From: Azospirillum agricola
Lineage (GTDB): Bacteria > Pseudomonadota > Alphaproteobacteria > Azospirillales > Azospirillaceae
NCBI RefSeq assembly: GCF_017876095.1
Contig: NZ_JAGINM010000003.1
Location: 63,491 to 127,490, forward strand
Reading direction: 5' to 3'
DNA length: 64,000 nucleotides
In this document: one piece after another, positions 112-39,160 of the stretch
Position numbering within the stretch: position 1 is the stretch's first letter
Layout of the letters: each line of letters starts with the position of its first letter
Made by a program: the position numbers and the translations under genes
The notes under the pieces: generated by a model
Databases searched by the model: none
The model's input: only the letters and a program-made list of their open reading frames with translations
Told to the model about the DNA's origin: nothing

Positions 112-1752
112 TCAGTGCGCGACGCCGCCCAGCGGCACCGGGGACAGGCGGCCGTCCTCCATGTGCAGATGGACGTCGGCTGTGTCGAAATACTTGTCGT
201 CGTGGGTGATGGCCAGCACGGTGATGCCGGCCTGCCGCAGGCGGGGCAGGATGACGCGGTAGAACTTCTCGCGGAAGCGCGGATCCTGGTCGGCGGCCCA
301 TTCGTCGAAGACGCAGATCGGGCGCTTCTCCAGCAGCGACACGATCAGCGCCAGCCGCTTGCGCTGGCCGCCCGACAGCCGGGTGGTGCTGAACCGCCGG
401 TCGCGCAGGCTGGATTTGTGGCTCATCTCCAGCAGCCTGAACAGCTCGTCGGCCTCGGACTGGTCGATGTCCGGCACGCCGTACAGCTCGGTGAACAGGT
501 GGTTGTCGGAGAAGATGACCGAGAACATGTTGCGGTAGGCCGCCAGATTCTCCGGGCCGATGCGCTCCTCGTCGACGCGCAGGGCGCCGTCCACCGCCGG
601 GTAGAGGCCGATCAGCAGGCGGATGAAGGTGGTCTTGCCCGATCCGTTGCCGCCGGTGATGAACACCACCGTGCCGCGCTCGATGGTCAGGTCGATGGGG
701 CCGACCGCGAAGCCGGAATCGCCGGCCGGGGCGTGGTGGCGGAAGGTCAGGCCGTCCAGCACGATCCGCCGGAAGCCGTGGAAATGGTCGGCCTGCCGGG
801 GATCCCCGTCGCGGTCCACGTCGATGCGCGACAGCCGCTCCTCCAGCTCCAGGATGCTCTCGGCGGCGGTGTTGGCGTTGGAGAAGATGGGCAGCGCGCC
901 GACCACCGTGGAGACCGGGCCGATCATGAACAGGCTGGCGGTGGTGGTCATCACCACCGATTCGACGTGGGACTGGCTGAGGCTCGGCACGACGAACACC
1001 ATCAGGCCGGTCAGCAGGAAGAAGGTCACCTGCGACATCACGAAGTCGTTGGCGTACAGGGTCTGGGTGCGGATCTTCAGGGTCGCCACGTCGGACGACA
1101 CATGGGCCACCCGCTGGGCGATCTCCAGCGAGCGGGTGGTGCTCATCTTCACCTCCTTGAAGCCGTCGAGCATGTCGGTGAAGCCCTCCACCAGCTCGTT
1201 CTCGCGCGCGAAGGCTTGCCGGAGCTGGGCCTTGACCTCGCCCGAGCGCGCCAGATGGATGGCGGCGCCCAGCGTGGTGAAGGCCGCCGACAGCAGGAAG
1301 GCGGCCATCGACAGGGTCAGCATGTACAGCATGGTGAAGAGCACCAGCACCGCCGACTGCACGGCGATGATGATGTTGGGGGCGGCCTGGGAAATCACCT
1401 GGGTCTCGCGGCTGAGGCCGGCGTAGATCTCCGAGCGGCCGATCTCCTCGATCTCCAGGAACTCGGCGTGGCGCGCCCGCTCCAGCAGCCGCACCCGCAG
1501 CCGGTGGATCAGATGCTCCACCTGATTGCACACATCCACCATCAGCCGCTTCTGGGTGACGACGAAGATGGCGATGGCCAGCGAGAACAGCAGCAGGTTG
1601 TGCAGGTTGGACTGCTTGCTCGACACGTTCTGGGCGGCGACGTTGATGGTCGCGAGCACGGCGGCGTTGGCCAGCCCGGAGATCGCCGCCAGCAGCAGGA
1701 AGCGGAAGCGCAGGACGTCCGCGTCGCGCCGGAAGAGGGCTAGGAGTTTCAT
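112..1752 (-). CDS. Cyclic-peptide/siderophore-type ABC exporter, fused permease plus ATPase (SyrD/PvdE/YojI-like)
   Basis: 546 aa. N-terminal hydrophobic half with multiple TM segments. C-terminal ATPase with Walker A (GGNGSGKTTF), ABC signature (LSGGQRKRLALIVSLL) and Walker B (VFDEWAADQD). ATG at 1752 preceded by GGAG. The plus ORF 22..1743 is its antisense artefact. Confidence 0.85.
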   Translation of the reverse strand: MKLLALFRRDADVLRFRFLLLAAISGLANAAVLATINVAAQNVSSKQSNLHNLLLFSLAIAIFVVTQKRLMVDVCNQVEHLIHRLRVRLLERARHAEFLEIEEIGRSEIYAGLSRETQVISQAAPNIIIAVQSAVLVLFTMLYMLTLSMAAFLLSAAFTTLGAAIHLARSGEVKAQLRQAFARENELVEGFTDMLDGFKEVKMSTTRSLEIAQRVAHVSSDVATLKIRTQTLYANDFVMSQVTFFLLTGLMVFVVPSLSQSHVESVVMTTTASLFMIGPVSTVVGALPIFSNANTAAESILELEERLSRIDVDRDGDPRQADHFHGFRRIVLDGLTFRHHAPAGDSGFAVGPIDLTIERGTVVFITGGNGSGKTTFIRLLIGLYPAVDGALRVDEERIGPENLAAYRNMFSVIFSDNHLFTELYGVPDIDQSEADELFRLLEMSHKSSLRDRRFSTTRLSGGQRKRLALIVSLLEKRPICVFDEWAADQDPRFREKFYRVILPRLRQAGITVLAITHDDKYFDTADVHLHMEDGRLSPVPLGGVAH

Positions 1753-1819: not shown

Positions 1820-4800
1820 TCAGTCGGCGTGCAGCAGCGCGTCCAGATCGTCCAGGGACAGCCCCTTGTAGGTGAAGTCCGACGGCGTCGCCTCGCTGCC
1901 GCTCCGCGAGACGCAGTGGCGGACGATTTCGGCGAGGGCTTCGAGGAAGCCGTCCAGCAGCCCCTGCGCCGTCTCGCGCCCCACGGCGCTGTCGTAGTCC
2001 AGCCCGACCGTCAGCGCCCCGTCCACCACCATGGCGAGGATGTCGAGCGGGTGAGGGCGGCGGACCCGCGCGCCGAGCGCCCGGCCCGGCGCGTCCCAGT
2101 CGATGGCGAATCCCCCGCCCGGCTGGCCGGCAGCCGTGACGCCGCCCATCACGCCGCCCATCACGCCAAGGAAGTTGAAACCGATCTGGCCGGCCAGCGG
2201 CGCCAGTCCCGGCCCGGCCGGATGGCGGGTCAGCAGGCCGTAGCTCCAGCCCCGGTCGGGCACCTGCCGCAGCGACTCCTTGACCCGCTTGACCAGCGTG
2301 CCGATGTCGCCGGCCCCGCCGCCGTCCGTCCCGGAATCGAGCAGGAAGGGGTAATGGGCGGTGAACCAGCCCACCGTGCGGGTCAGGTCGGGAAGCGGAG
2401 CGGCGTCGCTGCCGGCGGCTGGCCATTCCCGGCCGTGGGATTCCAGCGTCACCAGCGTGCGCCGGCGGTCCAGCCGGCGGCTCAGCGCCAGCGCCAGCCC
2501 GGACAGCAGCAGGTCGTCGGTCCGCGTGCCGTAGGCGCGGTGGGCCGGACCCAGCAGCAGGGCGGTGGTGTCGCGGTCCAGCCGTCCCGAGACGCTCGCC
2601 ATGTCGGCCATCCGCACCGCCGCGCGGCCGGGCGGCACCACGGCGAGCGGCTCGGGCGGGGCCACCGCATTCCAGTAGGCCAGCGCCCCGCTCCAGCCGG
2701 CGCCGCCGGCCATGTCGGCCAACGCCCCCGTGTAGTCGCGGTAGGAGGCGGTCTTGTCGGGAAGCGCCAGCACCGTTCCGGCGAGGGCGGCGGCGTAGGC
2801 GGTGTGGACGTCCTCCAGCAGGATGCTCCACGACACGCTGTCCACCACCAGATGGTGGGCGGCCAGCAGCAGCCGGTCGCAGGAGGCGCCGCGCGCCAGC
2901 AGGGCGGCGAACAGCGGTCCGCTGTCCAGCCGGAAACCGGCGTGCAGCCGGTCGGCGGCGGCGGCCAGTTCCGTGTCCTCGTCGGCGCCCGGTTCGGCGC
3001 CCGGTTCGGCGCCCAGCTCGACCAGCGTCAGGGACGGCCCGCCGTCGGGCGGCAGGATGACCGGGTCGGGCAGGGAAACGCCGTCCGAGGCCGCCGGAAA
3101 GACCGTCCGCAGGGCGTCGTGATGGCGCCACAGGCTGTCGAGCGCCTTGCGGAGCGCTTCGGCGTCGAAACCCGCCGTCGCCCGCAGCAGGACGCCCTGG
3201 TTGAAGTGATGGCGGTCCTCGTCGACCGTCTCGAAGAACCAGCGCTGGATCGGCGCCAGGGGCACCGGCCCGCTCACCGGCCCCTGGTCGGCGCGCAGCT
3301 TCAGCGGCTTCACCACCTGGGCGAACTGGGCGACGCTGGGATTCTGGAAGATGTCGCGGATCTCCGCCCCCAGCTCCAGCCCGCGCAGGCGGGAGACGAT
3401 CTGGATGGCGCGGATGGAATCGCCGCCCAGCCCGAAGAAATCATCGTCCACGCCGATGTCGCCGCGTTCCAGGATCGCCCGCCACACCTCCAGAACCACC
3501 TGTTCCACCGGGGTGGCCGGATCGCGCCTGCTGGCCGCCGCCGGAGCGGCGGGGGCGGGCAGGGCGGCGCGGTCGAGCTTGCCGTTGACCGTCACCGGCA
3601 GCGCGTCCAACGGCACCAGATGGGCCGGCACGGCGTGGGAGGGCAGCCGGCGCGACAGATGGCGGCGCACCGCCACCGGTGTCACCGCGTCCACCCGTGG
3701 CACCGGACCGGCGGCGAACAGCCGCTCGTAGAAGGGGCTGGCGCGGAAGCCGTCGCCGAAATGGGCGCTGGCCACCCGGAACGGCACCGCCTCGGCGTCC
3801 TGGCGCTCGATCCGGCCGGTGACGGTGAAGTCGGGGTTGAGGCCGTTGCCGCATAGGCTGCGGGCCACGGTGAAGCGGACGCGGTCGCCCGGCCGCACCG
3901 CGACGCCCGCCTGGTCCAGGGCCTGGTCCAGCGGCAGGTAGACCGGCAGCCAGCTTCCCGGATTGTCGAGGATGTCCACCACATGGTCGGCGTCGACGTG
4001 GAGCTGGAGCCAGACCAGCAGGCCGGTGACCGGCCCGGCCCGCTCGATGACCAGCTCCCCGTCGTGGACGGCCTCCAGCGGCACGAGGCCGGTGTGGTCG
4101 AGATCCTCGAAGATCCCGGCGGTGGAAAGGATCGCCTCGCGCGGCAGGTTCTTGACGCAGACCCGCAGGTCGAAGGGGCGGCCGACCTCGGCGAAGATCC
4201 GCTCCACGTAATGGGCGGCGATGTCGGGGAAGCCGTAGGCGAAGCTGCCCTCCGGCAGGCCGACGGCGGCGATGCGGGTCAGGCTGCGCTGCGGCAGCAT
4301 CCGCGCCGGATCCTTCAGGAAGCGGCGGGCGCCGTTGATGATCTTCGCCGCCCCCTCCGAGCCGCCGATGGCCCCTACGATCTCGGAGATGCAGAAATCC
4401 ACCGGTTCCGGCAGCGTGATGGACTGCGCGTCGCCGTGGATCACCTCGATGCGGTCGGACAGGCCCAGCCGCTCGACGGTTTCCCGCGCCTTGCGCGCCG
4501 TGCTTTCCAACAGGTCGATGGCGTAGACCTTGCGGGCGCCGGCCTCCAGCGCCAGCCGCGCCAGGATGGCGAAGGGGCCGGTGCCGATGTCCACCACCGT
4601 GCGGCCCGGCAGATGGCGGGCGAAGGCGTCGCGGTAGCGGCGGTTGCGGCCCTCGTCGCCGGCCATGCTGGAATAGGCGACGTCGTCGTAGACGAAGAAC
4701 TCCGCCACCGAGGGCCACAGCTCCACCCGTGCTTCTGGGCAGTAGTAGGCGGCCAGCGCCTGGGAGCCGTCGGCCCGCGTGACGGTGGCGACGGCGGCGT

Positions 4801-7800
4801 CGCGCACGCCCGGAACGCCGCGGAGCGCCTGCTCGACCTCGCCCAGCTCGATGCGGTGGCCGGACACCTTGACCTGCTCGTCGGCGCGGCCGAGGAAATC
4901 CACCGCGCCGTCGGGCCGCCAGCAGGCGAGGTCGCCGGTGCGGTACAGCCGCTCGCTCCAGGGGGCGGTGACGAAGCGGGCGGCGGTCTGCGCCTCGTCG
5001 CCCCGGTAGCCGCGGGCGAGGCCGGCGCCGCCCAGATGCACCTCGCCCGGCACGCCGACCGGCACGGCCTGACCCGCCCCGTCCAGGATGTGCAGGCTGG
5101 TGTTGGGCAGCGGCCGGCCGATGGGGATGCGGACGAGCGCCGCGTCGGCGCCGCTCACCCGGTGGATGGTGGCGCAGACCGAGGCCTCGGTCGGGCCGTA
5201 GGCGTTGAAGGCGCGCAGGCGGTCGGCGTAGTGGGTCAGGTCGGCCACCGGCGCCGCCTCCCCCGCCGTGATCAGCACCTTGAGGGTCGGCATCGCCGCC
5301 CGCTCCAGCGCCCGCAGGTAGGTGGGCGGCAGGGTCGCCACGGTGGTGCCGCTGGCCGCCAGGAACTCCAGGAAGCGCGGCACCGATTCGATGACCGCCT
5401 TGTCCGGCAGCACGACGGCTCCCCCGGCGAACAGGGCCATGAAGATGTTCGCCAGCGAGGCGTCGAAGGAGGGGGAGGCGAATTGCAGCACCCGGTCCCC
5501 GGCCCCCAGCCCGAAGGTCTCGATCTGGCCCAGCGCCATGTTGACGAAGCCGGCATGCTCGACCATCACCGCCTTGGGCTGGCCGGTGGAGCCGGAGGTG
5601 AAGATGATGTAGGCCACCTCGTCCGGCGCCACGGCGGGGAGCGGAAGGTCGGGGTCGGTGGCGCCGGGATCCAGGAGCGGAGCCACCGCCAGGGCCGGCG
5701 GGCTGCCGGGCGGGAGTGCCACCTCGTCGCCCGGCCGGTCCACCAGCACCAGCCGGCATTCGGCGCGCTCCAGCATGGCGGCGAGCCGGACGGCGGGATA
5801 ATCGGGGTCGAGCGGCACATAGACCGCGCCGGCCTTCAGGATCGCCAGCAGGGCCACCACCGATTCCACCGAGCGGTTGGCCAGCACCGCCACCCGGTCG
5901 CGCGGCTCCACGCCCTGGCTGGCCAGCGTCCGGGCCAGCCGGCCGGTCGCCGCCTCCAGCGCGGCGTGATCCAGGCTGCGGTCGGCGCCCACCAGGGCCG
6001 GGCGGCCGGGGTGGCGGGCGGCCACCTCCGACAGCAGGGCGGCCATCGACAGGGATGGACGGTCGGCGGCCGGGCCGGCCGCGAAAGCGGCGATGGCGGC
6101 GCGCTCGGGGCCGCTCAGCAGGGGCAGGGTGCCGACCGGTGTGTGGGGGGCCAGCGCCGCCCCCTCGGCCAGCACCGCGAAATGGTCGCAGATCGCCGCG
6201 ATGCGCGGGGCGTCGAACAGGTCTTGGTTGTAATTGAGATCCAGCACCAGCTCGCCGCCGTCGGTCTGGAAATGGAACACCAGATCGTAGCGGCTGAAGT
6301 TCCAGGCGTTCTCCGGCCCGAACGGCCGCGCCGCCGCGCCGTCGAGGGCGAGGTCGATCGCTCCGAAGGTCTGGACCACCACCATCACGTCGAAGACCGG
6401 CGAGCGGCTCATGTCGCGGGCGAGGTCCAGCTCGCCGACCAGACTGTCGAAGGGGTAGGACTGGTGGGCCAGCCCGTCGGCCACCGTGCGGCCGACCGCC
6501 GCCAGCAGGTCGGCGAAGGGGGTTTCGGGCTCCACCCGGTCGCGCAGGGCCAGGGTGTTGACGAGATAGCCGATCTGCCCGTCGAGGTCGGGGTGGTCGC
6601 GCCCGGCGACCGGGCTGCCGACGATGATGTCGCGCTGGCCGCTGTAGCGGTGCAGCAGCGCCTTGGTCAGCGCGGTCAGGGTGGCGAACAGGGTGGCGCC
6701 GTGGGCCTCGGCCAGTTCCAGAAGGCGGCCGGTGGCCTCGGCCGGCAGGCGCAGGCGGCGCGTGGTGCCGTTGAAGGTCTGCACCGGCGGTCGCGGCCGG
6801 TCGGTGGGCAGCTCCAGCACCGGCAGCGGACCGCCGAGCCGGTCCAGCCAGTAGCGGCGGTCGGCCTCCAGGGCGCCGTCCGCCAGCCGTCCGGCCTGCC
6901 ACGCCGTCGCGTCGCGCTGTTGGATCGGCAGCGGAGGCAGGCCGGGGTCGCGGCCCTGGGTCAGGGCGGCGTAGACCGTGGCCAGCTCGCGCACCAGCAC
7001 GCCCAGCGACCAGACGTCGCTGACGATGTGGTGGATGTTGAAGAGGAAGACGTGGCGCGGCGTGCCGTCCCCGGCCCCATTGTCGTCGGGCAGGCGGGCC
7101 AGCACGGCGTGGAGCAACGGCCCGCTTTCCAGGTCGAACACATGCTCGCGGTTGCCGGCGGCCAGCCGGTGGGCCTCCTCGTCCGGCCGGGCGTGCCGGC
7201 GCAGGTCGATCGTTTCCAGCCGCCAGGGCAGGTCGGCATGCACCACCTGCCGGGCCTGCCCGTCCTCCTCGCGGAAGCTGGTGCGCAGGGAGTCATGGCG
7301 GCGGATCAGGGTCCGGAAGGCCTGCTCCAGCGCGGCGGCGTCGACCGGTCCGCGCAGCTCGTAGGCTTCGGGCAGGTTGTAGGCGGTGGGGGCGATGCCC
7401 ATGCGGTCGAGCCGCCACAGCCGCGCCTGGGCGGGCGAGGCCGGGTGGCTGGGGGCGTCGGGCACGCGCGGGATCGGCTTGGGGGCGGACGGGCCGCTGG
7501 CCTTGGCGCGGTCGATCAGGGCGGCGAGTTCGCGGATGGTGGAGTTGGCGAAGAAGTCCTTCAGCGCGACCTCGACGCCGCAGGTCTGGTAGATCTCCAG
7601 CACGGCGCGGATCGCCCGCAGGGAATCGCCGCCGAAGGCGTGGAAGCGGGTGGTCACCCCGGCGTCGGCGATGCCGAACAGCCCGTTCCACACGGCGGCC
7701 AGCGCCTTCTCGGTGGCGGTTTCCGCCGGGACATAGCCGCTTTCCTGGTAATAGAGCGCTTCCGGCCGCGGCAGGGCCTTGCGGTTCAGCTTGCCGCTGA

Positions 7801-9325
7801 TGGTGGTCGGCAGGTCGGCCAGGGCGATGAGGGTGTGCGGCTGCATGCCGGACGGCAGGATGCGGTCGAGCGCCGCCTTCACCGTGTCCGCCGGCAGCGG
7901 GTCGGAGGAGCCGTCGGCGCGCACGTAATAGCCGGCCAGCAGCGGGCGCTGGTCGGCGCCGGCATGGACGGCGCAGGCCGCCTGCGCCACGCCCGGCACC
8001 TGCCGCAGGGCGGCCTCGACCTCGGCCAGCTCGATGCGGATGCCGCTGATCTTGACCTGGTTGTCCTGGCGGCCCAGGCATTCGACGGTGCCGTCGGGCA
8101 GCAGGCGGCCGAGGTCGCCGGTGCGGTAGATGACGTCCGGCTTGTCGGGGCTGAGGGGGTTCTGGACAAAGGCGGCGGCGGTCAGCTCGGGATCGCCGAG
8201 GTAGCCGAGCGAGCGGTAGGGCGTGCGGATGTGGATCTCGCCGATCTCGCCGGCGGCGCAGGCGCGGCCCTGGTTGAGGATCAGCACGGCGGTGTTGGGC
8301 AGCGGCTTGCCGATGGGCAGCACGCGGCGCGGGTCGCCGGACAACGCGCCCACCCGGTGGAACAGCTTGGCCAGCGTGGTTTCCGAGGGACCGTAGAGGT
8401 TGACCAGCTCCGCCCCGCCGCCGGCCACCGCCCGCCACGCCGCCACGTCGGCGCCCAGCAGCGGCTCGCCGGCGACCAGCAGATGGCGCAGATGGGGGAA
8501 CGGGGCTTCGGCCGGGGCGCGGTGCTCCAGCTCCCGCACCAGCAGCCGCAGCACGGTGGGCACGCAATGGACCAGGGTCAGGCGGGAGTCCGCCATCCAG
8601 TCGACCAGCCGGTGGGGCTGGCCGCGCAGTTCGGGCGCCGGAACGCAGACGGTGCCGCCGGCCATCAGCGGCACCAGCACGTCGCGCAGGCTGACGTCGA
8701 AGGTGATCGGGGCCAGCCAGGAGCCGCGCGTCTCCGCCCCGAGCCCGAACTCGGCCAGCTCCCAGCGCAGGAAATGGCTGAGGCCGCGCTGCTGGCCCAG
8801 GATGGCCTTGGGCTGGCCGGTCGAGCCGGAGGTGAACATGACGTAGCAGCCGTCGCCCGGCCCCACGGCGACGCCGGGGTTGTGGTCGGGCTGTTCTCCG
8901 GCCGGGCCGTCGGCCGCCAGGATGACCGCTTCGGCCCCGGCGGCGGCGAGGCGCGCCTCCAGGGCGGGGCGGTTGGCGGAGTCGGTCACCACCACCCGGC
9001 AGCGCGCCTTGTCCAGATAGGCGGCCAGCCGGCGTTCCGGCAGGTCGGGCGGCAGCGGCAGGAAGGCCGCCCCCGCCTTGCCGGTTCCGAGCAGGGCGGC
9101 GATGCAGCCGATGCCGGGATCGAGGAACAGCCCGACGATGCCGGCGCCACCGCCGACCGCGCCGCCCGTCACCCCATGCGCCGCCAGCGCATGGGCGACG
9201 CGGTTGGCCTGCCGGTTCAGGGCGTCGTAGGTGATGCTTCGCCCGGCGGTCTCGACGGCGACGGCCTGGGGGCGGCTCTCGGCCTGGAACTCGAACTGCT
9301 CGAAATAGGCTTGGCGCTGCATCAC
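1820..9325 (-). CDS. Non-ribosomal peptide synthetase, two modules: A-T-C-A(methyltransferase-interrupted)-T-E (ends with an epimerisation domain, no TE)
   Basis: 2501 aa. A1 core motifs (YVMFTSGSTGQPK, NLYGPSETT, YRTGDL, GRQDNQVKISGIRIELAEVE, ISGKLNRKAL). T: FGGDSLRA. C: HHIVSDVWS. A2: YIIFTSGSTGQPK, NAYGPTEAS, YRTGDL, KVSGHRIELGEVE...NGKLDRAAL, with an inserted SAM-MT (VVDIGTGPF...VYAIDL...FCISEIVG). T: FGLGGDSIRA. C-terminal domain has E-domain motifs (LAPIQRWFFE, HHLVVDSVSW). Confidence 0.92.
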   Translation of the reverse strand: MMQRQAYFEQFEFQAESRPQAVAVETAGRSITYDALNRQANRVAHALAAHGVTGGAVGGGAGIVGLFLDPGIGCIAALLGTGKAGAAFLPLPPDLPERRLAAYLDKARCRVVVTDSANRPALEARLAAAGAEAVILAADGPAGEQPDHNPGVAVGPGDGCYVMFTSGSTGQPKAILGQQRGLSHFLRWELAEFGLGAETRGSWLAPITFDVSLRDVLVPLMAGGTVCVPAPELRGQPHRLVDWMADSRLTLVHCVPTVLRLLVRELEHRAPAEAPFPHLRHLLVAGEPLLGADVAAWRAVAGGGAELVNLYGPSETTLAKLFHRVGALSGDPRRVLPIGKPLPNTAVLILNQGRACAAGEIGEIHIRTPYRSLGYLGDPELTAAAFVQNPLSPDKPDVIYRTGDLGRLLPDGTVECLGRQDNQVKISGIRIELAEVEAALRQVPGVAQAACAVHAGADQRPLLAGYYVRADGSSDPLPADTVKAALDRILPSGMQPHTLIALADLPTTISGKLNRKALPRPEALYYQESGYVPAETATEKALAAVWNGLFGIADAGVTTRFHAFGGDSLRAIRAVLEIYQTCGVEVALKDFFANSTIRELAALIDRAKASGPSAPKPIPRVPDAPSHPASPAQARLWRLDRMGIAPTAYNLPEAYELRGPVDAAALEQAFRTLIRRHDSLRTSFREEDGQARQVVHADLPWRLETIDLRRHARPDEEAHRLAAGNREHVFDLESGPLLHAVLARLPDDNGAGDGTPRHVFLFNIHHIVSDVWSLGVLVRELATVYAALTQGRDPGLPPLPIQQRDATAWQAGRLADGALEADRRYWLDRLGGPLPVLELPTDRPRPPVQTFNGTTRRLRLPAEATGRLLELAEAHGATLFATLTALTKALLHRYSGQRDIIVGSPVAGRDHPDLDGQIGYLVNTLALRDRVEPETPFADLLAAVGRTVADGLAHQSYPFDSLVGELDLARDMSRSPVFDVMVVVQTFGAIDLALDGAAARPFGPENAWNFSRYDLVFHFQTDGGELVLDLNYNQDLFDAPRIAAICDHFAVLAEGAALAPHTPVGTLPLLSGPERAAIAAFAAGPAADRPSLSMAALLSEVAARHPGRPALVGADRSLDHAALEAATGRLARTLASQGVEPRDRVAVLANRSVESVVALLAILKAGAVYVPLDPDYPAVRLAAMLERAECRLVLVDRPGDEVALPPGSPPALAVAPLLDPGATDPDLPLPAVAPDEVAYIIFTSGSTGQPKAVMVEHAGFVNMALGQIETFGLGAGDRVLQFASPSFDASLANIFMALFAGGAVVLPDKAVIESVPRFLEFLAASGTTVATLPPTYLRALERAAMPTLKVLITAGEAAPVADLTHYADRLRAFNAYGPTEASVCATIHRVSGADAALVRIPIGRPLPNTSLHILDGAGQAVPVGVPGEVHLGGAGLARGYRGDEAQTAARFVTAPWSERLYRTGDLACWRPDGAVDFLGRADEQVKVSGHRIELGEVEQALRGVPGVRDAAVATVTRADGSQALAAYYCPEARVELWPSVAEFFVYDDVAYSSMAGDEGRNRRYRDAFARHLPGRTVVDIGTGPFAILARLALEAGARKVYAIDLLESTARKARETVERLGLSDRIEVIHGDAQSITLPEPVDFCISEIVGAIGGSEGAAKIINGARRFLKDPARMLPQRSLTRIAAVGLPEGSFAYGFPDIAAHYVERIFAEVGRPFDLRVCVKNLPREAILSTAGIFEDLDHTGLVPLEAVHDGELVIERAGPVTGLLVWLQLHVDADHVVDILDNPGSWLPVYLPLDQALDQAGVAVRPGDRVRFTVARSLCGNGLNPDFTVTGRIERQDAEAVPFRVASAHFGDGFRASPFYERLFAAGPVPRVDAVTPVAVRRHLSRRLPSHAVPAHLVPLDALPVTVNGKLDRAALPAPAAPAAASRRDPATPVEQVVLEVWRAILERGDIGVDDDFFGLGGDSIRAIQIVSRLRGLELGAEIRDIFQNPSVAQFAQVVKPLKLRADQGPVSGPVPLAPIQRWFFETVDEDRHHFNQGVLLRATAGFDAEALRKALDSLWRHHDALRTVFPAASDGVSLPDPVILPPDGGPSLTLVELGAEPGAEPGADEDTELAAAADRLHAGFRLDSGPLFAALLARGASCDRLLLAAHHLVVDSVSWSILLEDVHTAYAAALAGTVLALPDKTASYRDYTGALADMAGGAGWSGALAYWNAVAPPEPLAVVPPGRAAVRMADMASVSGRLDRDTTALLLGPAHRAYGTRTDDLLLSGLALALSRRLDRRRTLVTLESHGREWPAAGSDAAPLPDLTRTVGWFTAHYPFLLDSGTDGGGAGDIGTLVKRVKESLRQVPDRGWSYGLLTRHPAGPGLAPLAGQIGFNFLGVMGGVMGGVTAAGQPGGGFAIDWDAPGRALGARVRRPHPLDILAMVVDGALTVGLDYDSAVGRETAQGLLDGFLEALAEIVRHCVSRSGSEATPSDFTYKGLSLDDLDALLHAD
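3656..4738 (-). other. Class-I SAM methyltransferase domain inserted between motifs A8 and A9 of the second A domain (about aa 1530-1890 of the NRPS)
   Basis: Motif I VVDIGTGPFAILARLALEAGARKVYAIDL and post-I/II ...RIEVIHGDAQSITLPEPVDFCISEIVG. It is flanked upstream by A8 (KVSGHRIELGEVE) and downstream by A9/A10 (LPSHAVPAHLVPL...NGKLDR). Coordinates are approximate, from residue counting. Confidence 0.7.
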
Positions 9326-9395
9326 ACGGAAACTCCGTCAGGACTCGTAGGGCCGCCGAGGCGGGGCTGGAATGCGGAAATGCGGGGGAAGGGCC

Positions 9396-11327
9396 TCACC
9401 AGTCGGCCTCCATGTCCGCTCCGGCGTCGGCCGGTTGCGGTTGCGGGGCGGCGGTTCCGCCGAAGGCCGGCAGGTCGAAGGCGTCGAGGAACAGGCCGAA
9501 GGTCAGCACCACCATCAGCAGGTCGTCCTCGAAGGTCTGGTTGAGGTCGCGCCCCGGCTCGCGGTGGAGGCGCTTGAGGCGCTCCACCGTGCCGGGGTCG
9601 AAATAGCCGTCGCGGCGGATGCGCTCGGGCGACAGCAGTTCCTCCACCAGCGGCACGCCGTGGCGCAGCAGCGCGGCGCTGCTCGGGGCGACGAAGCTGA
9701 ACTTCTTGCGCTCGACGATCTCCGGCGGCAGGTAGCGGCGGGCCAGCCGCTTCAGCAGGTGCTTTTCCTCGCCGCCATGGACCATCAGGGCGGGGGGGAT
9801 GCGGCGGGCCACCTCGATCACGCCGATGTCGAGGAAGGGATAGCGGGCCTCCACCCCGTTGGCGAAGGCCACCCGGTCGCCATGGTCGGCCAGCAGATGG
9901 TCGGCCATGCGCAGCTTGAAATCGAGGTAGGAGCGCTTGTGGAAGGCGTGCCGCCCGGCCAGCCGGGCGACGTCCACCGGCGGCCGGTCCAGGCAGTCGA
10001 AGCCGGGGAAGCGCGCGGCCACGGCCGGGGAATAGAGGGCCCGCTTGATCTCGGCCGCCGCCAGATAGTTCTTCTCGTAGAAGAATCCCGCGTCGCCCCA
10101 CAGCCGCTGGCGGAGCTGGGATTCCAGCAGGGCGTCGAGGTCGGCGGGGTCGGCGTCCGTCTCCCGGTGCTGGTCCAGCCGGTAGCCGACATAGCCGCCG
10201 AACAGCTCGTCGGCCCCCTCGCCGGTCAGCACCACCTTCAGGCCCCGCTCGCGCACCATCCCCGACAGGATCAGCGAGCAGGCGTTGTAGGATTCCCGCA
10301 GGGGCGCCTCGGCGTGGCGCACGATGTCGGCGAGATGGGCGTGGATCTGCTCCGGCCCGACGGCGGTCTCGTGGTGGAGGCTGCCCAGCCGCCGGGCCAT
10401 CAGGCGCTGGTGGGGGCTCTCGTCGATGCGGCCGTCCCGGAAGGTGATGGAGAAGGTCTGGCGCCGCTCGCCCGGCGTCAGGTCGGCGGCGATGGCGGCG
10501 ATCAGCGAGCTGTCCAGCCCGCCGCTGAGATAGGCGCCGACCGGCACGTCGGCCTGGAGCCGGTAGCGCACCGCCTGCCGCAGGGCGGCGTCCAGCTCCT
10601 CCACCCAGGAGTCCGCCGGACGGCTGTCGTCGATGGCGCCGGCCTCGGGATAGTCGAGGTCCCAATAGACCGAGCGCCGGCGCGCGCCGCTGGATTCCAC
10701 CACCAGCACGGTGCCCGGCTCCAGGCTCTCCACCCCCTCGAACAGGGTGCGCGGGCTGACCGGGCCGGGGAAGGTCAGGATCTGGTCCAGCCCGGTCAGG
10801 TCCACCCGACGCGGCACCGCCGGATGGCGCAGCAGCGCCTTGATCTCCGACCCGAAGACCAGCCCCTCGGCGGTGTCGGCGAGGAACAGGGGAGCGATGC
10901 CGACATGGTCGCGGCCCAGCACCAGCCGGCGGCGGGTGAGGTCGTAGACGGCGAAGGCGAATTGCCCGTTCATGCGGGCGGCGAACTCCGGCCCGTATTC
11001 CTGGTAGAGGGCCGGCAGCACCTCGGTGTCGGCGCGGGTGCGGAAGCGGTGGCCGCGCCGCTCAAGCTCGGCGCGAAGCTCCCCGTGGTTGTAGATCTCG
11101 CCGTTGCACACGGAGACCACGGTGCCGTCGGCGCTGAAGACCGGCTGGTTGCCCGCCGCCAGATCGACGATGGCCAGCCGGCGGAAGCCCAGGCCGATGC
11201 CGGGGGCGGTGAAGAAGCCCTCGTCGTCGGGGCCGCGATGGACCAGCGCCTCGGCCATGGCCGCCAGTCGGTGGCGGGCCACCGGTTCCGGATTGCCGGG
11301 GGTGAAGAGTCCGAGAATTCCGCACAT
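9396..11327 (-). CDS. asnB: Asparagine synthetase (glutamine-hydrolysing) family amidotransferase, AsnB-like, embedded in the NRPS operon
   Basis: 643 aa beginning MCGILGLF (class-II glutamine amidotransferase N-terminal Cys), followed by an Asn-synthase adenylation domain (SGGLDSS PP-loop). ATG at 11327 lies only 5 nt after the megasynthase stop (TAA 11333-11335). The tracked ORF 9396..16922 merely extends this frame upstream as an Arg-rich artefact over the megasynthase. Confidence 0.85.
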   Translation of the reverse strand: MCGILGLFTPGNPEPVARHRLAAMAEALVHRGPDDEGFFTAPGIGLGFRRLAIVDLAAGNQPVFSADGTVVSVCNGEIYNHGELRAELERRGHRFRTRADTEVLPALYQEYGPEFAARMNGQFAFAVYDLTRRRLVLGRDHVGIAPLFLADTAEGLVFGSEIKALLRHPAVPRRVDLTGLDQILTFPGPVSPRTLFEGVESLEPGTVLVVESSGARRRSVYWDLDYPEAGAIDDSRPADSWVEELDAALRQAVRYRLQADVPVGAYLSGGLDSSLIAAIAADLTPGERRQTFSITFRDGRIDESPHQRLMARRLGSLHHETAVGPEQIHAHLADIVRHAEAPLRESYNACSLILSGMVRERGLKVVLTGEGADELFGGYVGYRLDQHRETDADPADLDALLESQLRQRLWGDAGFFYEKNYLAAAEIKRALYSPAVAARFPGFDCLDRPPVDVARLAGRHAFHKRSYLDFKLRMADHLLADHGDRVAFANGVEARYPFLDIGVIEVARRIPPALMVHGGEEKHLLKRLARRYLPPEIVERKKFSFVAPSSAALLRHGVPLVEELLSPERIRRDGYFDPGTVERLKRLHREPGRDLNQTFEDDLLMVVLTFGLFLDAFDLPAFGGTAAPQPQPADAGADMEADW

Positions 11328-11332
11328 CGGCG

Positions 11333-26041
<14,709 letters not shown>

Positions 26042-26949
26042 CGTCAGCGTCTGGGTTGCGGCGGTGCGAGGGGGTGGTCTCGTGCGGAATCTCGGTTGTC
26101 GTTAAAAACAACAATGACATGCAAATCATTTTGCCAACGCGCGTGTCTGGTATGAGTATACATGAGTTTCTTTCTGGTGAAAATCTTAGTTTTTCTTCGT
26201 AATGCTCAGATAAATATTCGGAATCTAAATCGATGATTCCGGTATTTACCGGGTAATCGGAGAATTATCATTGGGATCGGCGATGAGTTCGTGGATTTTC
26301 TGAAAAATATCCTTCGCGAATTGACGGAGGGTTGTCTCTTGATGGGCGGTGTTGGCGGTAAACACGATTGCTGAACGCATCGATCGGCCATCTCGGAGAT
26401 TGTGGATTCCGCGCTGCGAGCGATCAATGGAGTATTAAAGACAAATTATACTTCTCAATGATTGTGATAATGCGCGCCACTACATTTCCTTTATTCTCTT
26501 TGTATAAACCTCGTTTCAGGAATGAGTTTTAAGCAATGAACGGTGAATTTCGAAATTCTCATGGCAATTCATGAATGTTATTGCATCGGTGCGCGCCTAT
26601 GGATTTATACGATCATCTGCCATTTTAGAAAAGACTCTTGTTGTCATTTCATTGTTGCATGGTATATAGCAAAATCTGCATAGATAACGCGGATATGTCA
26701 ATGCTAATGGCGGTTGATTTTATAAAGAATCGGTCATTCATTCGTATTCTTTGCCGTTTGGATGAGTAATTGGTTCCAATTCGGCGCGTGTTATTGAAAC
26801 ACATATGAAATATGTTCTGGAGGTGGATGGGGGTTTCTCTCCCAATAAGGCCGCTTCCTGAAAATTCACTGGACGATGGACCACTGCCGAAGCGGCTGGC
26901 CGCGTCCATCGGAAAACCTTCACCATCACTTCGGCCGGGGGGCGGTGTC
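26042..26949. promoter_or_regulatory. AT-rich (about 40% GC) intergenic island of about 0.9 kb containing the divergent promoters of the megasynthase operon (leftwards) and the hydrolase-autotransporter block (rightwards)
   Basis: Composition drops sharply from about 70% GC. Many A/T runs and short direct/inverted repeats are visible. No credible ORF; the tracked ORFs here are short, start-poor and low in GC3. Confidence 0.6.
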
Positions 26950-29900
26950 ATGGCGTGCAGCAAGGACGAGGTTTGCGAAAGGGGCAGGAGCCGGACAGGG
27001 ATCCTGCGGGATCTGCTGCTGGCGGGTGTCGCGCTGTGCCCGCTGGTGCTGGGGGCGGCCGAGGGCCGGGCCGCCAGCCGGGAGCAGCTGGGGCCGGTGC
27101 TCCAGGCGGTGATCGACATGACCGTGTCCCAGGGCTCCTCGTTGCAGGGCGTGGGCGTGGGGGTGAGCTACGGCAACGGCGAGATCTGGCTGGGGGCCGG
27201 CGGCTACCGGGACATCGCCCGGACCCAGCCCCTGCAACCGACCGACCAGTTCCGCATCGGCAGCCACAGCAAGACCTTCACCGGTACGGCGGTCCTCCAG
27301 CTGGTGGACCAGGGGGCGATCCGACTCGACGACACGCTGGAGCGCTGGCTGCCCAACACCGGCATCCCGAACAGCGGCGCCATCACGGTGCGCAACCTGC
27401 TGAACATGACCAGCGGCATTCCGGATTACCTGATGGCCGCGTCGCTGCGCTATCCGAACATGTCGGTGCTGGCCGAATGGAGCCGCTTCGCCCTCGGCCC
27501 CCCCTACGCCACCGCCGACTACACGCCCGAGCAGCTGATCCAGGCGGTGGTCCAGACGCCCGGCCAGACCTATGGCGCGGTCGGGCAGATGAAGTATTCC
27601 AACACCAATTTCGCCCTGCTGGGAATGATCGCCCAGAAGGCGTCCTGCGCCACGGCCGGGGGCTGCCGCTCCATCGAGACCCTGGTGAACAGCGGCGTCA
27701 TCCAGCGGCTTGGCATGGGGAGCACCCTGTTCCCCGTCGACGGGAACTTCACCGGCGTCCCGGTGCAGAACCTCCAGACCGTCATGCCCAGCGACGTGAT
27801 GCCCGGAATGCCCGCCGGCTCCTACAACGTCACCAACGCCAACCCCAAGGTGCCATGGGCGGCGGGATCGATCCTGTCCACCCCCCTGGACGAGCTGACC
27901 TGGATTCGCCAGCTGGCGCTCAACAACCAGAACCTGCTGTCCCAGCAGACCCAGATCGAGCGGCTGACCAGCACGGTGCCCGGCAACGTCGCCTACATTC
28001 CGGTGCAGTACGGGCTGGCGATCTACCACATGCCCTCCACCGGAACCGGCACCCAGCTGGTCGGCCACAGCGGCCAGATCGGCGGCTACGTCTCGTCCAT
28101 CTTCTACGATCCCCTGCTGGACGTCGCGTTCTCCATCAACATGACGGGCTACGCGACCGACGCCGCTCCCTGGTACCCGCTCTACGGCGGCAGCGCCTAC
28201 GCCGACGCCCTCCAGGGCGGCAACTTCAACACCGTGCCGATCCTGTGGGCGCTGGACCGCAACCTTCAGATCGCCATGCAGGCCCAGGGGAACTGCACCG
28301 GCTGGGGAGGGGACGTCACCGCCGCGCCGGCCACCTGCGCCGGCGACAGCGTCCGCACGGCGGCGCTGGACGTGTCGGGTTCCCTGACCGTGCAGCCGTC
28401 CGGGCGGGGCATCACCAACGCCGTGATCACCAACATCACGGATCCCATCCCCCAGGTGGCCTTCGTCACCGTGCCGCGCCCCAGCATCGCGTTCTTCGGC
28501 AGCGGCATGGCCGGCATCAACCTGAATCCGGGCGCCTCCCTGATCCTCCAGCCCGGCTCGATCATCGAGATGACCGGGGTCAACTCCGCCGCCGTCCTCC
28601 TGGGGGGCTACAACACGGTGACCGCCTCCGGCACGGTCAACGCCTATGGGGCGGGCAGCTCCGCCTTCGGGCTTCTCGGCAGCGGCAGCACCCTGAGCAT
28701 CGGCCCCTCCGCCAATGTGCTGGGCGACGTCCGGCTGGGCCGGGGGACCACCAACACGGTGATCGTGGACGGCGTGGTCGCCGGCAACATCGACATGACG
28801 AACACCAACACCCGGTTGCAGGGAAGCGGCCTCATCACCGGCACCGTCGGCGGCGGCGGCCGGGTGGCGCCGGATTACATCGTCGCCGGCGGGCTGGGCG
28901 GCGGCACCCTGCCCCAACTGACCGTCGGCTCCTACAACGGAAACAACACGGTGCTGGAGATCCACACCCGGCCGGGTGGGGTCAGCAACCGGCTGGTGGT
29001 GGCCGGCACCGCCGATCTGCTGGGCGGCACCCTGGAGCTGAATCCCGACTCGACGCGGCTGGACGGAATCTACACGGTGCTGACCGCCGGCACCGTCCTG
29101 AACCGGTTTTCCTTCGTCAACTCCATCGACCGCACCGCGGTGCGCGCCTATTACGGAGCGGGAGAGGTGACGGCGGCGGCGGTCAACGCGGTCAGCTTCG
29201 ACATGGGCGTGCGCACCGCCAACGCCGGCATCGGCCAGCATCTGGGCGTTCTCCAGGACCGGGCGGCGCTGTTCGGCGGCTCGCCGTTGCAGGTGGCGGC
29301 CCGGCCCGGCGGCACCCTGTCGGACGCCGCCGGCTCGGGCATCGAGGGGTTCGTGCCGCGCCGGCCGGTGGAGCTGCGCGGCCCCCGTGGGGTCAACCTG
29401 TGGAGCGACGCCTTCTACCACATGGGCCGCTTCGACCAGGCCAACGGGACCGCCGGCATCCGCAGCCACGGCATCGGCCTGGCGCTGGGCGCCGACGTCG
29501 AGCTGTCCCGCAGCCTGGGCGTCGGCGCCATGGCCGCCTACCAGACCACGCGGGCCAGGGCGGGCGACGGCAACGACACGGAACTGGATTCCCGGGCCTA
29601 CTACGCCGGCCTCTACGGCGTGGCGAAGCTGGACGCGGTGACGGTCGACGCCTCGCTCCTGGCCGGCATCGGCGACAACGACACCCGCCGCCCGACCATG
29701 GTCCTGGGCTCGGCGATGGCGGCGGCAGGCGATTACCGCGATCTGCGGCTGGCGGCCAAGCTGGGGGTCAGCCGCGAGGTCGACGCCGGTTTCGCCACCC
29801 TGGTGCCGCGGCTGGCGGCCTCCTGGTCGCGGGTGCAGGGCGATGGCTACGCCGAGAAGGGGGCGGGCGTCGGGGCGCTGGCGGTGGACAGCACCTCGTC

Positions 29901-30234
29901 CCAGCTGTTCCGCGCCGAGGCGTCGCTGGGCCTGCGCCGGGTCTTCGATCTCGGCGACGGCGACCTGGGCGGCGGCGGCCTGCTGAGCGAGCTGCGGGTC
30001 GGGGTGGCGCGCGACGTCGAACTCGAGGGGCGCACCGAATCGGGCCGGGTCATCGCCTACGACCTCCCCCTCAGCGTGGACGGCTACGCCGAGAACCGCT
30101 GGAGCGTCCCGGTGTCGGCCCGGGTCGAGGCCATGGCCGGCGAAACCGTCAGCCTGTTCGGCGCCTATGGCGGCGAATTCTCTTCCCGCTCGGCCAGCCA
30201 CCGCTTCAACGCCGGCCTGCGGGTCCGCTTCTGA
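26950..30234 (+). CDS. AmpC/class-C beta-lactamase-fold serine hydrolase (esterase/DD-peptidase family) fused to a C-terminal autotransporter beta-barrel
   Basis: Signal peptide (MACSKDEVCERGRSRTGILRDLLLAGVALCPLVLGAAEG). SxxK (GSHSKTF), YxN (YSNTN) and HxG (GHSGQIGGY) motifs. Long Gly/Thr/Asn-rich passenger repeats. C-terminal beta-domain ending ...NAGLRVRF (terminal aromatic). An alternative start at ATG 26812 has no SD. Confidence 0.7.
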   Translation: MACSKDEVCERGRSRTGILRDLLLAGVALCPLVLGAAEGRAASREQLGPVLQAVIDMTVSQGSSLQGVGVGVSYGNGEIWLGAGGYRDIARTQPLQPTDQFRIGSHSKTFTGTAVLQLVDQGAIRLDDTLERWLPNTGIPNSGAITVRNLLNMTSGIPDYLMAASLRYPNMSVLAEWSRFALGPPYATADYTPEQLIQAVVQTPGQTYGAVGQMKYSNTNFALLGMIAQKASCATAGGCRSIETLVNSGVIQRLGMGSTLFPVDGNFTGVPVQNLQTVMPSDVMPGMPAGSYNVTNANPKVPWAAGSILSTPLDELTWIRQLALNNQNLLSQQTQIERLTSTVPGNVAYIPVQYGLAIYHMPSTGTGTQLVGHSGQIGGYVSSIFYDPLLDVAFSINMTGYATDAAPWYPLYGGSAYADALQGGNFNTVPILWALDRNLQIAMQAQGNCTGWGGDVTAAPATCAGDSVRTAALDVSGSLTVQPSGRGITNAVITNITDPIPQVAFVTVPRPSIAFFGSGMAGINLNPGASLILQPGSIIEMTGVNSAAVLLGGYNTVTASGTVNAYGAGSSAFGLLGSGSTLSIGPSANVLGDVRLGRGTTNTVIVDGVVAGNIDMTNTNTRLQGSGLITGTVGGGGRVAPDYIVAGGLGGGTLPQLTVGSYNGNNTVLEIHTRPGGVSNRLVVAGTADLLGGTLELNPDSTRLDGIYTVLTAGTVLNRFSFVNSIDRTAVRAYYGAGEVTAAAVNAVSFDMGVRTANAGIGQHLGVLQDRAALFGGSPLQVAARPGGTLSDAAGSGIEGFVPRRPVELRGPRGVNLWSDAFYHMGRFDQANGTAGIRSHGIGLALGADVELSRSLGVGAMAAYQTTRARAGDGNDTELDSRAYYAGLYGVAKLDAVTVDASLLAGIGDNDTRRPTMVLGSAMAAAGDYRDLRLAAKLGVSREVDAGFATLVPRLAASWSRVQGDGYAEKGAGVGALAVDSTSSQLFRAEASLGLRRVFDLGDGDLGGGGLLSELRVGVARDVELEGRTESGRVIAYDLPLSVDGYAENRWSVPVSARVEAMAGETVSLFGAYGGEFSSRSASHRFNAGLRVRF

Positions 30235-38191: not shown

Positions 38192-39160
38192 TCAGACCAG
38201 GGCGCTGTGGGGATCGCTCATCGCCACCACCACGCGCCGCGCCCCGGTGAAGGGGGTGCGCCCGTGGGAATAGCGCATGTTGTCGATCAGCAGCACATCG
38301 CCGGCCAGCCAGGGAAAGGCCAGGGTCTCGGCGGCGAAGGCTTCCCGCACCGCCTCCAGATCCGCCGACGCGATGGGGCCGCCGTCGCCGTGGAAGGCGT
38401 TGCGGGGCAGATCGTCCTCGCCGAACATGGCGATCATGGCCTCCTGCAACTCGGCCGGCAGGCTGGAGATGTGGAACAGGTTGGCCTGGTTGAACCACAG
38501 CTCCTTGCCGCTGCCGGGATGGAGGGCGGTGCCCTGGCAGACATGGGAGGTGCGCAGGCGGTCGCCGCCCAGCCACGCGAAGTCCATGCCGTTGGCCCGG
38601 CAATAGGCCTCCACCTCGCCCGGAACGTCGGTCTGGAACACCGTCTGCCAGGGCAGGTCGACGCCGTGGCCGTAGTTGCGCACGTACAGGACGCCGCGCT
38701 CGCGGAAGCGGGCCATGCGTTCGGTTCCGATGCGGGCCGTCACCCGCTCCATGTCGGCCAGCGGCGTCTCGCCGCCGGTCGCCGCCGGCACCACGCACTG
38801 GAAGGCCAGCAGCATCGGCCAGTCGCGGTGATAGGCCATCTCGCAATGCTGGGGAATGGTGTGGTTGGCCGGGTATTCGGTGGTGGTGTAGACCTTGCCG
38901 TCGACGCGGGTGCGCGGCGTCGACTGGTTGACGTAGGTCAGCAGGTCTTGTGAAAAGAGCGAGAGGAAATCCTCCAGCCCGGCCACCGGCCGCGCCTCGA
39001 AGCCGCGCAGCAGCACCGCCCCGCGCTCGGCCAGCAGCGCCCGGATCGCGTCGCGGCGCCCGTCGGCCCAGGCGATCAGGTTGGTTCCGTCCGCCGGCGG
39101 CGTGACGACGGCGATGGACGATCCCGCAAACAGATCACTGACGGTCAACCCGCTGCTCAT
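38192..39160 (-). CDS. TauD/TfdA-family Fe(II)/2-oxoglutarate dioxygenase, SyrP/AsnO/KtzO-like amino-acid beta-hydroxylase candidate
   Basis: 322 aa with a clavaminate-synthase-like fold signature (...YPANHTIPQHCEMAYHRDWP...DNMRYSHGRTPF). It lies convergent to and immediately downstream of the TE-containing NRPS. Confidence 0.8.
   Translation of the reverse strand: MSSGLTVSDLFAGSSIAVVTPPADGTNLIAWADGRRDAIRALLAERGAVLLRGFEARPVAGLEDFLSLFSQDLLTYVNQSTPRTRVDGKVYTTTEYPANHTIPQHCEMAYHRDWPMLLAFQCVVPAATGGETPLADMERVTARIGTERMARFRERGVLYVRNYGHGVDLPWQTVFQTDVPGEVEAYCRANGMDFAWLGGDRLRTSHVCQGTALHPGSGKELWFNQANLFHISSLPAELQEAMIAMFGEDDLPRNAFHGDGGPIASADLEAVREAFAAETLAFPWLAGDVLLIDNMRYSHGRTPFTGARRVVVAMSDPHSALV

Follow-up and report, generated by a model that had tools for sequence, protein, structure and literature searches.

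An AsnB-family amidotransferase gene in a split nonribosomal peptide synthetase module of Azospirillum agricola, and its pairing with one clade of adenylation domains

In a 64,000-nucleotide stretch of the Azospirillum agricola genome (contig NZ_JAGINM010000003.1, positions 63,491 to 127,490; hereafter the window), a gene for an AsnB-family glutamine amidotransferase lies between two megasynthase genes of a nonribosomal peptide synthetase (NRPS) operon. We found that NRPS-linked AsnB proteins such as this one form a single clade, and that a clade of adenylation (A) domains with an unusual specificity code (DxRH; DVRHLALLA in the window) co-occurs and co-diverges with it. The reading that we prefer, and to which we give a probability of about one half, is that AsnB is a pathway amidotransferase dedicated to the Asp-type residue loaded by module 1 of the downstream synthetase (NRPS2), which it would turn into Asn or isoasparagine (isoAsn), most likely on the assembly line.

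The gene (9396..11327, minus strand) runs from an ATG at 11327 to a TGA at 9396-9398 and encodes 643 aa; its translation begins with MCGILGLF and contains the PP-loop YLSGGLDSS. On one side, the upstream open reading frame (NRPS1, 11333..26041, minus strand, 4902 aa) ends with a TAA at 11333-11335, 5 nt before the AsnB ATG. On the other, NRPS2 (2501 aa) starts with a GTG at 9325, 70 nt past the AsnB stop, with a GGAG 7 nt 5' of that GTG and a further ATG at 9322. These coordinates and motifs confirm the original prediction of a full asparagine-synthetase homologue inserted between the megasynthase stop and the next NRPS. In the scan, 9200-11500 was free of promoter-like sites and the gaps on both sides of AsnB were free of terminator-like ones; the sole terminator-like match, at 10088-10103, is within the AsnB coding sequence, and the count is no higher than shuffle expectation. 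The top protein match, with 98% identity, is from A. agricola, and a megablast search of the gene against a plasmid collection gave no match.

Related loci were collected by a scan with one genome per species, which yielded 80 further loci, and the domains of the window were mapped on them by tblastn. The closest AsnB homologues, in another Azospirillum, the gammaproteobacterium Endothiovibrio (74% identity) and a metagenome contig, share the order polyketide synthase (PKS)/NRPS-AsnB-NRPS-ABC, which is kept in Azospirillum, Endothiovibrio, Xanthobacter, Pseudochelatococcus and Pseudoalteromonas; more distant ones in Methylobacter and Inquilinus are within aminotransferase-containing PKS/NRPS clusters too. 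NRPS domains were present at every locus whose AsnB was about 44% or more identical to the window protein, and at none of those with 34-40% identity. In a neighbour-joining tree of 87 relatives, where a condensation (C) domain match within 10 kb was taken as NRPS linkage, the NRPS-linked AsnBs formed a single clade of 56. Such a match was found in 53 of the 56 clade loci as against 0 of 31 outgroup loci (Fisher p = 2e-20), and the three clade loci without it were short or edge loci. The C-domain criterion was used because one locus (L057) had been counted as NRPS-linked on a match that was a spurious acyl-CoA ligase. The neighbours of one outgroup member were sugar-epimerase, GNAT and Mur-ligase genes. 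The linked loci belonged to Proteobacteria, Actinobacteria, Bacteroidota, Acidobacteria, Paenibacillus, Myxococcota, Planctomycetes, Verrucomicrobia and Lentisphaerae (seven or more phyla). Since NRPS linkage is confined to this clade, AsnB is a pathway enzyme, encoded in and co-inherited with biosynthetic gene clusters, and not a stray housekeeping asnB. That the clade sits almost only inside NRPS/PKS clusters across phyla bears out what had been argued from the position of the gene.

Specificity codes of the A domains were extracted by a MAFFT-based alignment. An A domain of code D[V/A]RH[L..][A/S][L..][L/M] was found within 10 kb in 40 of the 56 clade loci, mostly in the very next gene after AsnB. 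The code varies little: the proteobacterial version is DVRHLALLA, and that of Streptomyces, Kitasatospora, Acidobacteria, Bacteroidota and Paenibacillus is DARHLALM[T/I]. In a tree of 158 A domains from all loci, 42 DxRH domains formed an exclusive clade; across 39 loci, the identity of AsnB and that of its partner A domain to the window copies were correlated with r = 0.95. The DxRH clade, in other words, co-occurs and co-diverges with the AsnB clade. In Inquilinus-type loci the DxRH domain lies just past the edge of the DNA examined. In homologues of the Inquilinus megasynthase with 58-66% identity (P0121-P0123), the first A domain is DVRHLALLA and is contiguous with its C domain, the module order being aminotransferase-C-A(DxRH)-T-C (T, carrier domain), so that the association of AsnB and DxRH is independent of adjacency.

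Basic residues at positions 239, 278 or 322 of an A domain go with acidic side chains, as in the codes for Asp (DLTKVGHIGK), Glu (DAKDLGVVDK) and aminoadipate (EPRNIVEFVK), and Asn and Gln codes have neutral or acidic residues where those for Asp and Glu have basic ones. The pocket of the first A domain of NRPS2 (A1) is doubly basic, with Arg239 and His278, and the substrate of DxRH domains is probably an acidic, Asp-type amino acid. The same clusters carry a canonical Asp code (DLTK..H) at other positions. DxRH is hence not just the Asp domain of its cluster, and to judge from the codes it would do something other than ordinary alpha-activation of L-Asp, or would at least have a separate ancestry. 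The codes DVRHLALLAK and DARHLALMTK were absent from the literature searched, the coverage of which was incomplete.

A similar pocket occurs in the microcystin synthetase McyE. McyE loci obtained via the published mcyE-F2 primer comprised 22 metagenome stretches, 14 of them with NRPS/PKS domains; where the flank sufficed, the architecture was KS-AT-aminotransferase-C-A-T-C followed by a McyG-like gene, and the A-domain code was DPRHSGVVG, with Arg239 and His278 as in A1. In the structure of microcystin, McyE installs D-Glu via its gamma-carboxyl and the alpha-carboxylate stays free. The module for D-MeAsp (McyB2) presumably has the code DARHVGIFVK; neither this code nor DPRHSGVVGK was present in the literature searched, and the published McyB structure is that of McyB1, not of the MeAsp module. 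Leu299, Ala301, Leu322 and Leu/Met330 of the DxRH pocket are bulkier than the Ser, Gly, Val and Val of McyE, which suggests a shorter substrate, Asp rather than Glu. Common ancestry of the two was considered and rejected, as McyE was not sister to the DxRH clade in the tree, and the likeness of the pockets is consequently functional or convergent evidence and not homology.

All nine actinomycete loci carry an Asp/Glu-racemase-family gene between AsnB and A(DARHLALMT)-T. The product belongs to Pfam PF01177; its nearest NCBIfam models, cysteate racemase and asp_race, both scored below cut-off, and it is 33-34% identical (E ~1e-38) to the product of the gene after mcyE, which is the McyF position. 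Homologues of this racemase occur within a few kb of AsnB, mostly adjacent, in acidobacterial, Acidimicrobiales, Bacteroidota, myxobacterial, Micromonospora and Paenibacillus loci.

Some loci carry further domains of this kind. In those of Streptomyces and Kitasatospora (L033-L043, L059) there is an extra A domain of code DATQLALLA, which among non-RH domains is nearest to the DxRH clade and shares its scaffold, with Thr239 and Gln278 replacing Arg and His; it may recognise a neutral analogue, perhaps the amide, of the same substrate. A Chitinophagaceae locus (L023) combines one AsnB with three DARH domains and one ESRH domain, a TauD gene and a racemase, and a Paenibacillus locus (L035) has DPRHFALLA and DARHLSLMI on either side of AsnB. 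By their codes, the products of these two loci would carry several such residues.

The AsnB protein consists of an N-terminal nucleophile (Ntn) glutaminase domain (about aa 2-200) and a PP-loop synthetase domain (aa 244-594); the Pfam matches are GATase_7/GATase_6 at residues 33-166 (GATase_7 3e-42) and Asn_synthase (PF00733) at 244-594 (3.4e-83). It thus shows the marks of the class II (Ntn) glutamine amidotransferase/AsnB superfamily, namely a Cys after the Met, the glutamine site, and SGGxDS within an Asn_synthase protein. Among the 87 relatives, Cys2, R50, N75-G76-E77, D100, S268-G270-D272-S273 (SGGLDSS being residues 268-274) and E374 are invariant. Alignment to 1CT9 equates the glutamine-site residues R50, N75-G76-E77 and D100 with E. 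coli Arg49, Asn74-Gly75-Glu76 and Asp98, and the equivalent of E. coli AsnB Glu348 is also present and invariant. On the grounds that Cys2, the glutamine site, the PP-loop and the Glu348 equivalent do not vary, the catalytic machinery is intact, and AsnB is predicted to make ammonia from glutamine and to adenylate a carboxylate. In E. coli AsnB, Thr322 and Arg325 are implicated in beta-aspartyl-AMP formation and 362-387 is the Asp-binding stretch. The first two align to Glu345 and Asn348 of the window protein, both conserved only within the NRPS clade, and the stretch 362-387 is not alignable with it. Six basic residues (R383, R459, H463, R465, H477 and H482) are conserved in the NRPS clade and not in the outgroup. 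Together with Glu345 and Asn348, this set points to an acceptor site peculiar to the clade.

When compared with family models, AsnB scored 457.6 bits with TIGR01536, the NCBIfam equivalog for asparagine synthase, which is above the cut-off of 267.1. It was below cut-off with the E. coli-type model NF006949 (317.7 vs 499), with the lasso-peptide/macrolactam cyclase models NF033535 (211 vs 525) and NF033561 (89 vs 300), and with the XrtA/PEP-CTERM (TIGR03108, 415 vs 817) and NAGGN (TIGR03104, 348 vs 570) amidotransferases; the genomic context is NRPS, not exopolysaccharide or NAGGN. Its best match among solved structures was TsnB9, a hydroxyamidotransferase, at 234 bits; E. coli AsnB reached 200 bits.

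NRPS1 ends with a condensation domain (C4, LCL-like) and a tail (11333..12769, minus strand), and NRPS2 starts with A1-T, of code DVRHLALLA(K) (7514..9325, minus strand); these are the C half and the A-T half of one module split in two, and the AsnB gene is exactly in the split. Across loci one order recurs: first a protein whose last domain is a C4-like C domain, then AsnB, then a protein that opens with an A domain whose closest counterpart is NRPS2-A1. The upstream protein ends 1-9 nt before AsnB in sequences such as …DDELMDAW, …DDDLDDAW, …PDAW, …DEEW or …LDEEF. Contiguous C-A junctions in the window, for example DDAERALILDRWS in NRPS3, identify this upstream tail as the first A-domain helix, directly after which the downstream A-T protein begins, and the AsnB gene is therefore at a precise and conserved break point.

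AsnB itself carries a C-terminal extension of about 20 aa (9399..9458, minus strand; …GGTAAPQPQPADAGADMEADW) with an acidic-x-Trp end (…ADMEADW) that resembles the C-terminal tail of NRPS1. As judged by protein length, about one fifth of the listed homologues have an extension of 15-30 aa (…SDEFLDW, …ACESDAW): a short form of about 621-624 aa lacks it, and a long form of about 640-656 aa has a low-complexity linker and the acidic-x-Trp end. We cautiously regard the tail as a possible means of docking on the A-T protein, with which action on a carrier-bound substrate would fit better than the supply of a free precursor. In the loci L005 (Methylobacter) and L020 (Parachitinimonas), AsnB comes after a C-ending protein with a split-module tail (…LDEDF, …LDDEF), and no A-T partner was found within 10 kb downstream of AsnB; perhaps the partner gene is at another site, or AsnB has another role in these two loci.

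As we picture it, AsnB would be one half of a two-part cassette, NRPS2 module 1 (A-T, DVRHLALLA) being the other. A1, by virtue of Arg239 and His278, would select an acidic, Asp-type amino acid and tether it to T with one carboxylate left free. AsnB would hydrolyse glutamine at Cys2, adenylate the free carboxylate at the PP-loop site and deliver the ammonia, converting carboxylate into carboxamide. Residue 3 of a beta-amino-fatty-acid lipopeptide would in this way become Asn or, if it were tethered through the side-chain carboxyl as are the iso-linked acidic residues of microcystin, isoAsn. The amidation would most likely take place on a carrier-bound aminoacyl or peptidyl intermediate, an on-line action for which the C / AsnB / A-T split and an AsnB tail mimicking the upstream docking helix would speak. 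The Asp-type substrate, the regiochemistry with its choice of Asn or isoAsn, and the timing, be it on the carrier or before or after it, are inferences. It had been suggested at the outset that AsnB could amidate an Asp/Glu side chain of the peptide: ATP- and glutamine-dependent amidation stands as the best reading, but the acceptor would not be just any side chain, its partner being the residue of NRPS2 module 1. We also advance, tentatively and with the odds somewhat against it, a wider proposal by which AsnB docks on the split module and amidates a carrier-bound (iso)aspartyl residue, and a mobile three-gene cassette (AsnB, an optional McyF-like racemase and A(DxRH)-T) installs (D-)isoasparagine or asparagine in at least seven phyla.

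The G+C content of the window is about 73%. Its assembly line starts in NRPS1, the remainder of which (12770..26041, minus strand) is organised as FAAL-ACP-KS-AT-ACP-aminotransferase, C1-(A subdomain remnant)-T1 and C2-C3-A-T2, the A domain having a Thr code (DFWNIGMVH). By this domain order the line would begin with a beta-amino fatty acid, like those of the iturin type. The remainder of NRPS2 (1820..7513, minus strand) is C(LCL)-A2-T followed by an epimerization (E) domain, the only one of the line, and A2 has a Tyr/Phe-like code (DAATIAAVC) and an inserted methyltransferase. The last module is NRPS3 (34123..38148, plus strand), with C(DCL), an A domain of canonical Asp code (DLTKLGHIG), T and a thioesterase (TE). 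Adjoining NRPS3 is a gene for a TauD-family Fe/2-oxoglutarate dioxygenase (38192..39160, minus strand), a probable beta-hydroxylase of an Asp/Asn-type residue by its family, and TauD genes adjoin AsnB in L023, L031, L048 and L049. An ABC exporter (112..1752, minus strand) is conserved downstream of NRPS2 in orthologous clusters. Other accessory genes are DUF697, Band-7 and porin genes.

The first module of NRPS1 (aa 2273-2914; nt 17300-19225, minus strand) is indeed A-less, as the original prediction had it: C1 (2273-2693) is followed by a remnant of about 150 aa (2694-2850), which is only the C-terminal subdomain of an A domain, and by T1 (2851-2914). The remnant is kept in the orthologous clusters L001, L002, L004 and L007-L010. 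T1 is closest to T2 of the Thr module (47%), which hints that it could be loaded by a neighbouring A domain. Ahead of the Thr A domain there are tandem domains C2-C3 (14612-17243, minus strand; NRPS1 aa 2933-3810), and in the active-site motif of C3 (HHAVADKRA) a Lys replaces Gly. Since C-C-A-T has been reported also for the beta-hydroxy-Asn module of cystomanamide, C2 or C3 may by analogy serve the TauD enzyme as a docking or modifying domain. C2 (2933-3366) was considered as an epimerase and rejected, as E-domain motifs are absent and its N-terminus is LCL-type. Cystomanamide was likewise rejected as the product family: the tandem C-C is shared, but AsnB is not mentioned in the review text, and the A-domain codes of the related locus L050 are different.

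In the surroundings of the line, the divergent intergenic region between NRPS1 and an autotransporter gene (about 26100-26800) has a G+C of 0.57 (26001-28000 bin) against about 0.73 around it, and is likely the bidirectional promoter and regulatory region of the cluster. The autotransporter gene (26812..30234, plus strand) encodes an S12 (beta-lactamase-fold), D-peptidase-like passenger and an autotransporter beta-domain, the best solved matches of the passenger being alkaline D-peptidase and the R61 DD-peptidase. Genes of the beta-lactamase family recur in the proteobacterial clusters L004, L006-L011, L015-L017, L025, L028 and L030. A second autotransporter gene (45726-48674, plus strand) has a subtilase S8 passenger. 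The autotransporter and beta-lactamase-family proteins may process or degrade a D-residue-containing lipopeptide extracellularly. Just past the cluster (41881-45677) a gene for a CreD-like inner-membrane protein (minus strand) is next to plus-strand genes for a histidine kinase and an OmpR-type response regulator, all of them possible regulators.

Several observations weigh against a dedicated role on NRPS2 module 1. The DxRH domain is absent within 10 kb from seven well-flanked clade loci (L005, L020, L031, L032, L036, L041 and L048), and in one of these, L031, AsnB goes with two TauD genes and an A domain of canonical Asn code (DLTKVGEVG), a composition that free-Asn supply would fit better. 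The substrate of A1 is deduced from its pocket residues and the analogy with McyE only, and the McyE A domain is no close relative in the tree, so that the likeness may be convergent or coincidental. No McyF-like racemase was found in the window, the C domain after NRPS2 module 1 is LCL-like, and the docking tail is a short sequence resemblance in a minority of homologues. Moreover, the score above the NCBI equivalog cut-off for true asparagine synthase and the catalytic residues, all of them intact, are also what would be expected if AsnB merely provided more free L-Asn (or more 3-hydroxy-Asn together with the TauD enzyme, TauD genes adjoining AsnB in several loci) and the DxRH domain activated it via the alpha-carboxyl. 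Many bacteria make Asn on tRNA only, and for them a cluster-borne supply could help. We nevertheless consider such precursor supply unlikely, because the partner pocket is doubly basic, unlike those of Asn/Gln codes, the positions of T322 and R325 are occupied by clade-specific Glu and Asn, and L054 has a canonical Asn domain on top of AsnB and DxRH. Neither strict co-inheritance with one A clade, nor a place in a split module, nor a tail like a docking helix is needed by an enzyme that supplies a free amino acid.

TsrC, DdaH and the AsnO of NAGGN reportedly amidate finished or late intermediates. The same is reported for TsnB9 and ActJ (PMC5719088), and AsnB could accordingly act on another site of the released or near-finished lipopeptide, for instance the (beta-hydroxy)Asp that NRPS3 installs next to a TauD gene, or the C-terminal carboxylate; L005 and L020, with no A-T partner nearby, would agree with it. 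Late tailoring leaves, however, the clade-wide pairing with DxRH and the co-divergence unexplained, and related clusters vary in other residues yet keep the AsnB/DxRH pair, which makes it rather improbable. Still less can be said for a housekeeping asparagine synthetase caught in the operon by chance, or a cyclase of the beta-lactam-synthetase type acting on the beta-amino acid, which even jointly are very unlikely. The gene is annotated generically as 'asparagine synthase (glutamine-hydrolyzing)' and beta-amino acids are substrates of beta-lactam synthetase, but gene and cluster stay together from one class or phylum to the next. Besides, the match to CarA (1Q15) reached only 27.6 bits, over residues 261-380, against the 200 and 234 bits of E. 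coli AsnB and TsnB9. Beta-lactam and carbapenam synthetases no longer have a Cys nucleophile, and here Cys2 and the glutamine site are invariant, so that the ring closure mentioned in the original prediction was abandoned. The other suggestion made there, that AsnB supplies or loads the building block of the A-less module in place of the adenylation core, we find hardly credible. AsnB is an adenylate-forming enzyme, and the core is truly missing, in orthologous clusters as well; yet an A-less module is missing from most clusters of the AsnB clade, the invariant glutaminase site would serve no purpose in a loading enzyme, and T1 is most similar to the T domain of the Thr module. We know of no AsnB-family enzyme that forms thioesters.

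AsnB-family tailoring enzymes are already known. What is new here is an AsnB clade paired with one A clade of unreported code, its split-module place, the frequent McyF-like racemase and the tail mimicry; the literature searched, with incomplete coverage, gave no description of these four traits. Specificity predictors probably miscall the DxRH domain, its code being unlike any of the known canonical codes and any in the literature searched. If the role proposed for AsnB is true, a DxRH A domain together with this AsnB clade would be a genome-mining rule for a carboxamide-bearing Asp-type residue, possibly isoAsn, and it would help in interpreting over 50 uncharacterised clusters of Azospirillum, Xanthobacter, Streptomyces, Kitasatospora, Bacteroidota, Acidobacteria and others. 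It would also offer a tractable system for the access of trans-acting enzymes to carrier-bound substrates.

Among known systems, E. coli AsnB and human ASNS have in common with the window protein the Ntn Cys, the Arg/Asn-Gly-Glu/Asp glutamine site, SGGxDS and the Glu348 equivalent; the window AsnB is longer than that of E. coli (643 vs 553 aa) and its context is exclusively NRPS. The long-type AsnB homologues AsnB1 and LtsA act on meso-diaminopimelate of peptidoglycan, MurT/GatD on D-isoglutamate and GatCAB on tRNA, all by glutamine- and ATP-dependent amidation of an activated or incorporated acidic residue. Carrier-bound amidation by AsnB, if true, would be the NRPS counterpart of tRNA-dependent Asp-to-Asn transamidation and of the amidation of isoglutamate and diaminopimelate in peptidoglycan. 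The carriers are lipid II, a UDP-MurNAc-peptide or tRNA in those systems and an NRPS carrier domain here. With the microcystin line the window cluster shares an upstream PKS bearing an aminotransferase, and with McyE the pocket Asp235-x-Arg239-His278 (DPRHSGVVG vs DVRHLALLA/DARHLALMT), the Inquilinus-type order matching that of McyE; in contrast, the mcyE loci retrieved have no AsnB and microcystin keeps its carboxylates free. The iturin/mycosubtilin (MycA), puwainaphycin and cystomanamide lines have the FAAL-ACP-KS-AT-ACP-aminotransferase-C start in common with the window, but the texts covered by the literature search on these beta-amino fatty acid lipopeptide clusters mention no AsnB gene or DxRH A domain and assign Asn to the A domains themselves. 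For AsnB-like enzymes working with NRPS, the literature searched provided general precedents only (ActJ/MatC, OxyD, TsnB9 and the fungal ChyD). The tailoring AsnBs (OxyD for the malonamyl starter, ActJ/MatC for actinonin/matlystatin, TsnB9 for trichostatin, PDB 7YLZ, and DdaH for dapdiamide) have the same two-domain fold and are encoded within clusters, although identity to TsnB9 is modest and none has been described with a dedicated NRPS A domain or in a split C|A-T module. Their reaction makes an amide or hydroxamate from a free carboxylate of a pathway intermediate, which in several cases is a thioester-bound dicarboxylate, and for ActJ/MatC on 2-pentylsuccinyl-CoA and for OxyD it is the free carboxylate of the thioester-bound dicarboxylate that is proposed to be amidated (PMC5719088). 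The substrate that we propose for the window AsnB would differ from these in being an aminoacyl or peptidyl group held on an NRPS carrier.

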